From assembly GCA_964016885.1 (NCBI GenBank), contig OZ024760.1, positions 20,522,001-20,586,000 on the forward strand: a stretch of DNA of 64,000 nucleotides. Direction: 5' to 3'. The position numbers were made by a program, and so were the translations under genes. A model generated the notes under the pieces. It had not been told where the DNA came from. It was given only the letters and a program-made list of their open reading frames with translations, and did not search any database. The stretch's first letter is position 1, and the number at the start of each line of letters is the position of its first letter. Source of the DNA: Eledone cirrhosa (taxonomy: Eukaryota). Of this stretch, positions 53,858 through 59,075 are shown piece after piece.

Positions 53858-53926
53858 GACGGTGATGACACCAGTTATTAAATATGAGGTTTCTCTATGA
53901 AATATAATCCCTTGGCTGTCTGAGTC
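53858..53926 (+). ncRNA. SNORD53: box C/D snoRNA, SNORD53/snR64-like, copy 1
   Basis: gac stem, C box GTGATGA, guide TCCCTTGGCTGT then D box CTGA, gtc stem. Guide is complementary to conserved 28S ACAGCCAAGGGA; the D+5 rule points to the C equivalent to human Cm3848. Confidence 0.85.
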
Positions 53927-54045
53927 ACTCTGCATTTATGTAAATATCTGTTAAAATTGGGCTGTTTGTATCATTGGGAGTGGAGGGGGGGGTAATTTCA
54001 GGTGGGTTGTGGCTGCTTTATCTGGGAATTGTCATTCTCTGATTT

Positions 54046-54101
54046 GACAGTGATGACACCAATTATTAAATATGAGGTTTTTTTCTGAAATATAAACCCT
54101 T
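54046..54101 (+). pseudogene. 3'-truncated SNORD53-like copy
   Basis: C box and 5' half intact; guide and D box lost. Confidence 0.65.
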
Positions 54102-54567
54102 ATTTTGTTGCTATTTCAAATGAAATACACTTCTATCTCAAATTTCTGCAACTCCAGACATTATTATTTTGTGTGACTTGTCATGTGGCGGTATATGTTC
54201 TATATTTGTATAGAGGTGTAACTTCTATACAAATAGCACTGAGGCATTTAGTGGTGTATATAACCATACTTTATTTCTTAGGTACATAGCCAGTGTGTTT
54301 ATAGACCTGGAAGGTTTGTGTATATAACCATGCTATATTTCTAAGCTACACAGTCAGTTTCAATGAATTTTGAGGAATCTAATAATAGAGCTTAACTAAT
54401 TAATTAACATTATTTGATGGTTCAAGGGCGGTGGATTGGCAGTATCGGTAGAGTCGGACGCCATACTTTGCAGCAGAGTTACGGCCCTTTATAATTTGAG
54501 TTCAAATCCCGCTGAGGTTAACTTTGCCTTTCATCCGTATGGGGTCAATAATTTTAACCCCCTATTT

Positions 54568-54659
54568 GACAGTGATGACACCAGTTATTAAATATGAGGT
54601 TTCCCAATTATTAAATATGGGGTTTCTCTCTGAAATATAATCCCTTGGCTGTCTGAGTC
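54568..54659 (+). ncRNA. SNORD53: SNORD53-like snoRNA with 23-nt internal duplication
   Basis: C box, guide, D box and stem intact. Confidence 0.75.
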
Positions 54660-55100
54660 ACTTTAACTTTTTTTTTTTTTTTTGTTATTTCATGTTTGGA
54701 ACATTATTTGACAAAAGGTTCTAATCTAGGTTTTTAATGTAAATATATGGTAAAATGGGGCAATTTCAGCTGGGTCGGTGTTTAGAGGGATAAAACAACA
54801 TTTGAAGTGTTCTAAATTGTGAGTTATATTCAAAATTCTTGATTGTTTCCTAAATTATGTTGAAATATTAACCAGTAAAATTATAATGGAAGGGATAAAT
54901 TCCAAATTGGAGTTTTTATTGAAGTAGGTGGAAGGGCTATACGCTGTATGAGTTTTTTTAACTATATAATTAAGAGGATCAGGAGAAGACAGCACATATA
55001 TTACAGACTCCCAAGCTAATATGATAATGAAGGGTTAAAATAATGTTTTTATTAGCATTAGATGACTTGCCTTATATTTCAGGTGGGTTGTGGCTGCTTT

Positions 55101-55157
55101 GACAGTGATGACACCAATTATTAAATATAAGGTTTCTTTCTGAAATATAAACCCTTA
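55101..55157 (+). pseudogene. 3'-truncated SNORD53-like copy
   Basis: same truncation as the 54046 copy. Confidence 0.65.
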
Positions 55158-55490
55158 TTTTGTTGCTATTTCAAATGAAATACACTTCTATCTCAAATTT
55201 CTGCAACTCCAGACATTATTTTGTGTGACTTGTCATGTGGCGGTATATGTTCTATATTTGTATAGAGGTGTAACTTCTATACAAATAGCACTGAGGCATT
55301 TAGTGGTGTATATAACCATACTATATTTCTTAGGTACATAGCCAGTGTGTTTATAGACCTGGAAGGTTTGTGTGTATAACCATGCTATATTTCTAAGCTA
55401 CACAGTCAGTTTCAATGAATTTTGGGAATTTTGAGGAATCTAATAATAGAGCTTAACTAATTAATTAACATTATTTGATGGTTCAAATTA

Positions 55491-55684
55491 GGGCGGTGGA
55501 TTGGCAGTATCGGTAGAGGGTCGGACGCCATGCTTTGACGCATAGAGTTACGGTCCTTGCCATTCTGAGTTCAAATCCCGCCGAGGTTAACTTTGCCTTT
55601 CATCCTTTCGGGGTCGATAAAATAAAGTACCAGTAATGCACTGGGTAATTGCTGGCCTTGTGCCAAATGTAGAAACAATTATTT
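55491..55684 (+). mobile_element. tRNA-derived Meta/MESC-type SINE
   Basis: A box tggcagtatcgg, B box gagttcaaatcc, core gcctttcatcctttcggggtcgataaa, flanking direct repeat attatttgatggttcaa; more than 10 further copies (e.g. 1603, 3830, 6068, 35697, 39560, 41530, 54425, 55695). Confidence 0.8.
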
Positions 55685-55836
55685 GATGGTTCAAGGGCGG
55701 TGGATTGGCAGTATCGGTAGAGTCGGACGCCATGCTTTGCAGCAGAGTTACGACCCTTTATAATCTGAGTTCAAATCCCGCTGAGGTTAACTTTGCCTTT
55801 CATCCGTATGGGGTCAATAGTTTTAACCCCCTATTT

Positions 55837-55903
55837 GACAGTGATGACACCAGTTATTAAGTATGAGGTTTCTCTGAAATATAATCCCTTGGCTGTCTGA
55901 GTT
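55837..55903 (+). ncRNA. SNORD53: SNORD53-like snoRNA
   Basis: GTGATGA...TCCCTTGGCTGT-CTGA. Confidence 0.8.
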
Positions 55904-56464: not shown

Positions 56465-56575
56465 TATCCGTTAAAATTGGGCTGTTTGTATCATTGGGTG
56501 GATTTCAGGTGGATTGTGGCTTCTTTATCTGGGAATTGTCATTCTCTGATCCTGTCTCCTTTTAACTCCCTATTT

Positions 56576-56667
56576 GACAGTGATGACACCAATTATTAAA
56601 TATGAGGTTTCCCAATTATTAAATATGGGGTTTCTCTCTGAAATATAATCCCTTGGCTGTCTGAGTC
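56576..56667 (+). ncRNA. SNORD53: SNORD53-like snoRNA with internal duplication
   Basis: paralog of the 54568 copy. Confidence 0.75.
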
Positions 56668-57125
56668 ACTTTAACTTTTTTTTTTTTTTTTTATTTCATG
56701 TTTGGAACATTATTTGACAAAAGGTTCTAATCTAGGTTTTTAATGTAAATATATGGTAAAATGGGGCAATTTCAGCTGGGTCGGTGTTTAGAGGGTTAAA
56801 ACATTTGAAGTGTTCTAAATTGTGAGTTATATTCAAAATTCTTGATTGTTTCCTAAATTATGTTGAAATATTAACCAGTAAAATTATAATGGAAGGGATA
56901 AATTCCAAATTGGAGTTTTTATTGAAGTAGGTGGAAATACGCTGTATGAGTTTTTTTAACTATATAATTAAGAGGATCAGGAGAAGACAGCACATATATT
57001 ACTGACTGTCCCAAGCTAATATGATAATGAAGGGTTAAAATAATGTTTTTATTAGCATTAGATGACTTGCCTTTTTGTTTTTGGAAATAGTTAAGAATGC
57101 AGATGTAACTTTGCTGGAAATCTGA

Positions 57126-57275
57126 GAGAAGCCACATCACTGTGACATCTGTGGTAAATCATTCAGTTACAGTAATACCTTAACTACCCACAAACGTATT
57201 CATACAGGAGAGGAACCATATCACTGTGATATCTGTGGTAAAACATTCTCTGACAGAAGTAGCTTTGTTATTTGA
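57126..57275 (+). pseudogene. C2H2 zinc-finger fragment
   Basis: [46 protein letters not shown] then stop. Confidence 0.75.
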
Positions 57276-57449
57276 TATAGATGTGACGAGGTCATGGAGA
57301 GTAGGATTTGACGAGGTCATTGGAGATATGATTTCTTAAATGAAACAGTTTTACAGATAATATAATATATATAAACAAGAAAAATAGGGTTTTTTTTTTG
57401 TGGACTTCACTTTTGGAAACACTGGTAATTAAAAAGCATATGATTTCTT

Positions 57450-57517
57450 AGCAATGAGGATGACCTTGCCCTCTCTGATAATGATGAGACATTTTTCATA
57501 CGCATTCTTTCTGAGCT
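57450..57517 (+). ncRNA. box C/D snoRNA, SNORD103/SNORD85-like
   Basis: agc/gct stem, C box ATGAGGA, guide CTTGCCCTCT then D' CTGA, C' ATGATGA, D CTGA. Guide pairs with conserved 18S GGAGGGCAAG (human Gm601 site). Confidence 0.75.
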
Positions 57518-58217
57518 TTGGGAATAAATATGCTTTTGTATTTTGTGTTTGTAGAGTGTATTTATCGTAGTTTCTAGTGTCTGATGATGTTTTGGAAGTT
57601 GGATACAGAAAAAATTGTTTTTTGTAGACTTGGTTGGTAGTTTTAAAGACTGAAATTCTAAGTAGTGTCTTGAGTTAATTACACGTGGTATTGGTCACTT
57701 ATGTGCTATACTATCCCGGTTTTTAGAAAGGATCTACTGTCTTTGCAGTAATTTGAGTTAAATAGTTGAAACTGCAGGTGGTCTGAAATCTGATGTGTGT
57801 ATTTTAATGTTTGTGATCTCTTCTCATCCATTCTATTTCTTTCTTATCACTTCTTCGAGGTAATGTTTTACCCAATGCTGTTTTTACAGCATTTTGCTGT
57901 TTTAACAGCTTCCTATGAATATATATATATGGCAAGAAGTGTCCAGTAAAGTGGTCGTGAAGGTATCACAACAAATCACCCAGTACACACTGTTAATTCG
58001 GTTGGTGTTGGGAAAGGCATCCGGCTGTAGAAACAGCCAAAATCAGTTCTGTATGGGCAAGAGCTGGTTATGTGAGCTGGCTTGTCTCACAATAGGACAA
58101 CTCTTCTAACCCATGCTAGCATGAAGAAATGAATATTAAATGGTGATGTGTGCGTATATATATATATATATATATATTTCACAGGTGTCCCCTGGTTTAA
58201 TATAACCCCCTTTAAAT

Positions 58218-58285
58218 TGACTGTGATGACATGTTAAATATATGAGATTTCTCTCTGAAGTATAATCCCTTGGCTGTCTGAGTCA
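58218..58285 (+). ncRNA. SNORD53: SNORD53-like snoRNA, divergent subtype
   Basis: tgac/gtca stem; boxes and guide conserved while the spacer diverges. Confidence 0.82.
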
Positions 58286-58998
58286 CTTTTGTTATATGAA
58301 AGAACCTACTTGTAATTTGAAATGGTAGTACATTGTTTCCTTGCTTGCCGTAAAAAAACAACTAAAAATAACTAGCTGTAAAACATTTAATCCAACCCAT
58401 GCCAGCCTGGAAAGGGATGACAGTTAAGTCTGGCATGTATTAGTGTTTGTCTTTGCTTTGAATTTGGTATTGCTAGTATGGTGGGACTTAGGTCCCCCAA
58501 CATAGTGGTTTGATTGGCAAACCCCTCTACTTTTGTTTTAAAAGATAACCCTGTTCGAGTGTTGCCATCATGAAAGACATTCAGCTGTAGTATATTTCCT
58601 GGAAAAGTCTACAAGGTGTCCCAGCATGTCCTTGGCCTCTAGGCTGGAACATGTACTAGAGTTACAGTAGGTTTATAACTACAACTAGTGGTTGATAAAA
58701 CAATGACCAGCAGTTCAAATCTCACTGGTATGCCCTGGTTTAATATACACTCTAACCCATTAGCATTTAAACCGGCCATATCTGGCAAGAATTTTCTAAC
58801 CTTTCTGTTCAAACCGGTCGTAACTGGCTGCTCATACTGATGCAAACTTATTTTTCTCAAAATAAATATCAAAATCTCGTAGATTCGAAATTGTCAAATA
58901 AAGCCTTTTCTGTAAAAATATAATAGTAAATGTTAAAGAATTAAACTGATAACATTATCTTTTGTCTTTTGTCCCCTGGTTTAATATAACCCCATTTA

Positions 58999-59075
58999 AA
59001 TTGACTGTGATGACATCACGTTAATGATATGAGATTTCTCTCTGAAGTATACTCCCTTGGCTGTCTGAGTCAGTT
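58999..59075 (+). ncRNA. SNORD53: SNORD53-like snoRNA, divergent subtype
   Basis: aattgac/gtcagtt stem; boxes and guide conserved. Confidence 0.82.

Follow-up and report, generated by a model that had tools for sequence, protein, structure and literature searches.

A cluster of SNORD53-like box C/D genes downstream of RPL7A exon 2 in Eledone cirrhosa, probably multiplied by local tandem duplication

Introduction

Why does a short stretch of the Eledone cirrhosa genome carry eight sequences resembling SNORD53, a small nucleolar RNA (snoRNA) of the box C/D type, what would they guide, and which gene hosts them? The sequences lie near the end of a 64,000-nt window (contig OZ024760.1, positions 20,522,001 to 20,586,000, forward strand), whose coordinates are used throughout. 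The original prediction read them as SNORD53-like paralogs under birth-and-death evolution and proposed a switch away from WDR43, which we take to be the host of human SNORD53, together with dosage amplification under purifying selection on the guide. Our analysis favours, with a probability of about three in four, the following account: SNORD53-type box C/D genes downstream of RPL7A exon 2, predicted to guide methylation of the 28S ribosomal RNA (rRNA) nucleotide equivalent to human Cm3848, were multiplied by repeated local tandem duplication. What can be read directly from the DNA is the boxes, the host exon, the duplicated blocks, and a 12-nt rRNA complement together with its D+5 position.

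Results

Motif and profile searches bear out the eight predicted paralogs. C boxes with GTGATGACA start at 53862, 54050, 54572, 55105, 55841, 56580, 58223 and 59007 (c1–c8, all on the plus strand), and a whole-window search with a profile of four intact copies recovers these eight loci and no further full copy. Six of the eight C boxes are accompanied by a D box, CUGA, and these six copies, c1 (53858..53927), c3 (54568..54660), c5 (55837..55904), c6 (56576..56668), c7 (58219..58285) and c8 (59003..59072), end in TCCCTTGGCTGT-CTGA. Their guides lie at 53908, 54641, 55885, 56649, 58266 and 59053, and C box, guide and D box are invariant among them. The remaining two, c2 (54046..54101) and c4 (55101..55156), had been described as copies that lost the guide; they are truncated within it, their homology ending after AAACCCTT (54101, 55156), and the D box is absent. 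The 23-nt internal tandem duplication ascribed to two full copies is present in c3 (54582-54627) and c6, which measure 85 nt from box to box versus 59–62 nt in the others. Gain and loss of copies are both supported.

Divergence of the spacers, also part of the prediction, holds for the older lineages and not for the rest. The spacers of c7 and c8 differ from those of c1, c3, c5 and c6 by 4–7 substitutions plus gaps, whereas among the latter four we find 1–2 substitutions per 37–62 aligned nt, with a 2-nt deletion in c5. Five of the six intact copies have a terminal stem of 4–8 bp (8 bp in c8) and a D'-like CTGA; c1 falls under the 4-bp threshold and reads ATGA at D'. Folding of c1, c7 and c8 is not better than that of shuffled sequence, as is expected for C/D RNAs. 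At gathering thresholds, Rfam returns no match in the snoRNA region. At E-value thresholds, five of the six intact copies match SNORD53_SNORD92 (RF00325, clan CL00063) best, namely c1 (29.9 bits), c3 (29.4 bits), c5 (33.4 bits), c7 (34.9 bits) and c8 (35.6 bits), and the clan-mate snoZ157 is best for c6 (30.4 bits). Because the copies score under the Rfam cut-off and lie outside the host gene known from vertebrates, we call them SNORD53-like and do not file them as RF00325 members.

The guide is a perfect 12-nt complement to the large-subunit (LSU) rRNA of other eukaryotes. Specifically, 27 loci with the target motif were fetched and ten scanned, all ten of which proved to be eukaryotic LSU rRNA; three viral-contig matches to the motif have no Rfam match. 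The predicted target is ACAGCCAAGGGA, with the fifth base modified, and the D+5 rule selects the bracketed C in ACAG[C]CAAGGGA, at about position 2371 of the LSU model. An A and a C two bases apart at the target fit Am3846 and Cm3848, or yeast 2363 and 2365. Counting both strands, the window has 485 CTGA sites; seven carry such a complement directly upstream, and six of the seven are the intact copies. The claim that the guide matches the site of human Cm3848 therefore stands. This site is methylated in human (Cm3848/3869, SNORD53), in the fly (Cm2744), in Arabidopsis (Cm2366) and in Xenopus (Cm3020), the last with three SNORD53 copies, while its yeast counterpart, 2365, is listed as unmodified and without a guide (PMC11014333 Table S4). 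The parallel drawn to yeast snR64 fails, as that snoRNA guides yeast Cm2337, equivalent to human Cm3820/SNORD74 and given in a separate row of the same table, consistent with PMC3511168 and PMC2653536.

Besides the guide, the copies have another segment, TGAGGTTTCTCT, that agrees with the rRNA immediately upstream of the target in 10 of 12 positions in c1, c3, c5 and c6, a level reached in 13–25 of 3000 shuffles; c7 and c8 match in 9 of 12, reached in 126 and 142 of 3000 shuffles. The Rfam consensus carries GGUUUCGC at this place, and extra base pairing of this kind has been described (PMC4696412). Judged by these matches, TGAGGTTTCTCT likely gives extra pairing just upstream of the target. 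In a target scan with pairing scores, which covered some of the candidate snoRNAs, an alternative D' target for c1 and c3 (score 21) was rejected, since apparently unrelated pairings reached 21–22.5.

The upstream exon on the same strand belongs to RPL7A (eL8), and the part of the prediction that placed the copies outside WDR43 is supported. Coding exon 2 (52409..52529, +, donor GTAAGT at 52530) encodes the L7a N-terminus, with a phmmer E-value of 2.4e-17 to PDB 9EHO, an octopus ribosome (PMC13321053), and 36 of 38 aligned residues identical. Compared with a contig of a second organism, the exon has 11 listed differences (18 in the whole piece, among those listed), all of them synonymous, so the exon is likely functional. 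A likely start codon closing exon 1 (ATG^GTGAGT, caret at the boundary; 49925..49927, +) follows a pyrimidine-rich stretch. Downstream of exon 2 lies a SNORD24/U24-like box C/D candidate (53255..53321, +; Rfam SNORD24 33 bits, cut-off 41) whose D' guide pairs with LSU rRNA, and the chicken host of U24 is RPL7A (PMC2653536). The SNORD53-like copies are on the RPL7A strand downstream of both, and RPL7A is likely their host. A depth of ~2238 over the 3' part of exon 2 in run X4 was not used because the library type is not on record.

The copies appear to have arisen by local tandem duplication of flanking DNA, as far as sequence comparison can tell. Block 54039-54408 matches 55094-55469 (c2/c4) with 1.4% substitutions, and 54552-55073 matches 56560-57073 (c3/c6) with 0.8%. 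In addition, the upstream blocks of c3 and c5 differ by 2.6%, the c1–c2 and c5–c6 spacers by 2.4% (120–510 aligned nt for the blocks at 0.8–2.6%), and the blocks of c7 and c8 by 6.5%. Because c2/c4 and c3/c6 each lie within duplicated blocks, the four copies go back to a single truncation and a single 23-nt duplication, both of which were then copied one time. Furthermore, c3 has the upstream flank of c5 and the downstream flank of c6, which suggests unequal crossing-over or conversion. Several spacers are broken up by dispersed repeats. A fragment encoding two C2H2 zinc-finger-like motifs (57129-57266, +) ends at a stop and is high-copy in the sequencing runs compared.

With blocks 97–99% identical, snoRNA-like sequences scoring under the Rfam cut-off, and no listed contig piece spanning the whole cluster, one may ask whether the repeats are for the most part products of misassembly, or relics that resemble snoRNAs and have no function. 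Sequencing depth speaks for real duplication. Among the listed contigs of run X1, five single-copy pieces have depths of 9.6–10.8 and three duplicated-block pieces 20.4–27.4; the corresponding values in run X3, from the same sample, are 5.5–7.5 and 16.1–20.2, a two- to three-fold excess over the duplicated blocks in a sample that may be the assembly's own source. Moreover, two different contig pieces of a public run, both at single depth and free of differences, contain c7 and c8 respectively, and the copies have private substitutions and indels. In a comparison of four contig sets at 85% likeness, the joints seen derived from dispersed repeats. We consider an artefactual or relic origin very improbable.

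The distribution of changes among the intact copies points to modest constraint, in line with the predicted selection on the guide. When changes are placed on a tree of the six copies, none falls in C box, guide or D box, versus 6–13 spacer substitutions, depending on the gap penalty. A test of the guide alone gives P = 0.013–0.020 under three gap settings, and boxes and guide together give P = 0.0008–0.07. Purifying selection has probably acted on the boxes and guide in at least the two older lineages.

Other snoRNA candidates in the same stretch have been duplicated as well, which suggests that the region is prone to duplication. Two SNORD103/85-like C/D candidates (57447..57520, +, Rfam 32.4 bits, cut-off 45; 61005..61078, +, 33.5 bits) lie in blocks 9.2% apart and show one difference inside the snoRNA; a third, partial copy is seen at 62605-62689 (+). 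Three near-identical H/ACA-like candidates (59408..59536, 61759-61887 and 63277-63405, +) have two hairpins, an ATATTA hinge and ACA three bases from the end, with folding z of −2.8 to −3.05 and no H/ACA family among the Rfam matches listed. A 71-nt tandem array of about nine copies, its core 99–100% identical, occupies 59464-60315. Two orphan C/D-like candidates (62270..62338 and 63591-63658, +) combine a 10-bp terminal stem with a GTGATGC C box and clear C'/D' boxes. They have the 16-nt 5' flank TAAATTGACTGTGATG and the stem in common with c7/c8 (by alignment to c7) and may be a c7/c8 paralog with a replaced guide. The rRNA pairing scan gave no convincing target for the pair: the best 18S pairing has a mismatch, and the best scores, 20–21.5, were rejected against apparently unrelated pairings of 21–22.5.

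These neighbours bear on whether copy number was selected to raise guide dose after a move from WDR43. Guide and boxes are unchanged in six copies and the host is not WDR43, as such a proposal would have it. Against it, four of the intact copies are too young for the test (P 0.19), truncated copies were duplicated just like intact ones, and unrelated nearby snoRNA candidates were doubled or tripled too. The copies moved with their flanking DNA, and the dosage amplification of the original prediction finds no support. We regard selected dosage after such a move as improbable; the number of copies is better explained as a side effect of the region's proneness to duplication.

The proposed switch away from WDR43 likewise lacks support. 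In chicken, two copies of the guide for this site are in WDR43 (PMC2653536), which is named as a multi-snoRNA host (PMC9941101), but the fly guides for the same site are hosted in Fib and nop5 (PMC11014333 Table S6), and WDR43 is thus not shown to be ancestral. A metagenome scan for the guide yielded 87 stretches, reduced to 41 distinct cores in 86 loci. A U52-type D' guide stands beside the SNORD53-type D guide in 30 of the 41 (L004–L089), as in plant snoR37, and GGTTTCG is found in one (L005). The latter contig holds four SNORD53-like copies in 2.4 kb among PSMA3 exons (L005 135-1815); some of these were duplicated together with a CAG^GTGAG donor-like site. The occurrence of the same guide in WDR43, Fib, nop5 and a PSMA3-containing metagenome contig indicates that guide movement and local copying are recurrent. 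Copying and host change of such guides are common.

The only unusual feature is the crowding of about 14 likely guide genes into one apparent intron. Downstream of exon 2 we count ~14 intact-looking candidates (1 + 6 + 2 + 3 + 2), and no coding exon separates them. An exon-bound scan of open reading frames (ORFs) and short peptide motifs did not find RPL7A exon 3 up to base 64000, so the intron is longer than 11.4 kb or contains unrecognised exons. In animals an intron mostly holds a single snoRNA; where it holds two, sno-lncRNAs can result (PMC11028025).

That habit would be respected if the copies lay in separate introns of a stop-containing non-coding RPL7A isoform, or of a separate non-coding host transcript. 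A candidate 8-nt non-coding micro-exon, CAG^GATAAAAT^GTAAGT (53371..53378, +), with acceptor- and donor-like sequence, lies 53 nt past the U24-like D box; its acceptor scores highest among those listed between snoRNAs, and splicing would place an in-frame stop after exon 2. In addition, six copies retain an acceptor-like CCT(A/T)ATTTAG^A(T/C)GG, each of the three H/ACA-like copies has a donor-like CGGT^GTAAGT 35–37 nt before it that is preceded in turn by a 61–68 nt acceptor-bounded segment, and CAG^GTGG sites precede c2, c4 and c6. However, a crude splice-site score finds no acceptor–donor pair between most neighbouring SNORD53-like copies, and strong acceptors show no excess on the plus strand (6 versus 7 on the minus strand; donors 5 versus 1). 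Shared splice-like motifs may also reflect recent copying only, and separate non-coding introns are, in our judgement, unlikely.

A bolder version is doubtful: RPL7A would be a large snoRNA host in which tiny non-coding exons, the first being the 8-nt stop exon, split the >11-kb intron, and one promoter would give either L7a mRNA or a decay-targeted transcript releasing ~14 guides. New guides, such as the orphan pair, would be born there by duplication and guide replacement.

Upstream, coding pieces of MED22 (Surfeit 5; 41806..47783, −), in which three ORFs match Pfam PF06179 (E = 2.4e-05, 1.5e-03 and 5.5e-16), lie head-to-head with RPL7A, presumably the Surfeit arrangement. Between the two genes, an inverted duplication surrounds an (AT)n tract (48060-48190 / 48640-48830). 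Coding-like pieces upstream of MED22 (2479-14394 and 31166-39160, −) have no curated Pfam match in the five ORFs scanned. The sole gathering-level Rfam match in the window is a partial tRNA-like sequence (40535-40592, −) adjoining a dispersed repeat, which is probably derived from a short interspersed element.

Discussion

The preferred reading is that SNORD53-type genes downstream of RPL7A exon 2 were multiplied by local tandem duplication, and several observations weigh against it. The intact copies have no recognisable C' box, and all their Rfam scores (29.4–35.6 bits) are below the 46-bit cut-off of RF00325. The target comparison used the LSU rRNA of other eukaryotes in place of Eledone cirrhosa's own 28S. 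The intron does not close inside the window, and a single intron holding several snoRNAs is at odds with the way animals usually mature them (PMC11028025). With regard to selection, the guide-only test gives P = 0.12–0.19 under a fourth gap setting and P = 0.19 within c1, c3, c5 and c6, and it is biased towards conservation because the broken-guide copies c2 and c4 were left out.

We propose that the copies would be co-transcribed with RPL7A and trimmed from intron RNA, that the snoRNAs would bind the fibrillarin snoRNA–protein complex components, and that multiple copies would guide methylation redundantly. An older split separates c7/c8 from c1–c6, and more recent unequal recombination may have made c1–c6, carrying one truncation and one 23-nt duplication along. 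The locus contributes a mollusc entry for an already known guide, adds one more likely host gene of the Cm3848-type snoRNA, and provides a small, datable case of local gain and loss. If the cluster truly breaks the animal pattern of one snoRNA per intron, by non-coding exons within a ribosomal protein gene or by endonucleolytic release, L7a output would be tied to snoRNA output.

Among known systems, yeast snR64 and human SNORD74, likewise C/D guides, address a C from the same part of the LSU rRNA, but their target is 28 nt upstream (yeast 2337, human 3820) and not the site of the guide described here. SNORD115 and SNORD116, for which we know of no established rRNA target, differ in reaching up to 140 copies at an imprinted locus, whereas the window holds eight copies of a canonical rRNA guide. 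What they have in common with the window is that C/D genes multiplied locally in tandem and that copies were gained, lost and probably converted (PMC12429941). Plant snoR37/Z157 has the same D-box guide, for Arabidopsis Cm2355/Cm2366 (PMC3511168, PMC11014333), and adds a U52-type D' guide that the window copies do not have. Drosophila snoRNA:CD13 and CD67 (28S Cm2744) address the homologous site and are intronic in ribosome-related genes (PMC11014333 Tables S4, S6); they differ in their Fib and nop5 hosts, with one listed per gene, and are likened here by site and not by sequence. For cephalopods, the giant squid genome paper gives snoRNA totals only (PMC6962438), and searches of the literature outside subscription journals listed no description of octopus SNORD53 or RPL7A snoRNAs, although article supplements may list mollusc guides.

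The copies resemble SNORD53/U53 itself in the GUGAUGA C box, a D-adjacent guide ending in CUUGGCUGU-CUGA and the same predicted target C, and they may also have a counterpart of its GGUUUC element within the 5' half. Multiple copies are a feature of SNORD53/U53 too, with two in chicken WDR43 and three in Xenopus (PMC2653536, PMC11014333). The window copies differ from it in being shorter (59–62 nt box to box), in having no clear C' and in scoring below the Rfam cut-off, and they are set apart by the RPL7A host and by a series of copies that no coding exon interrupts.

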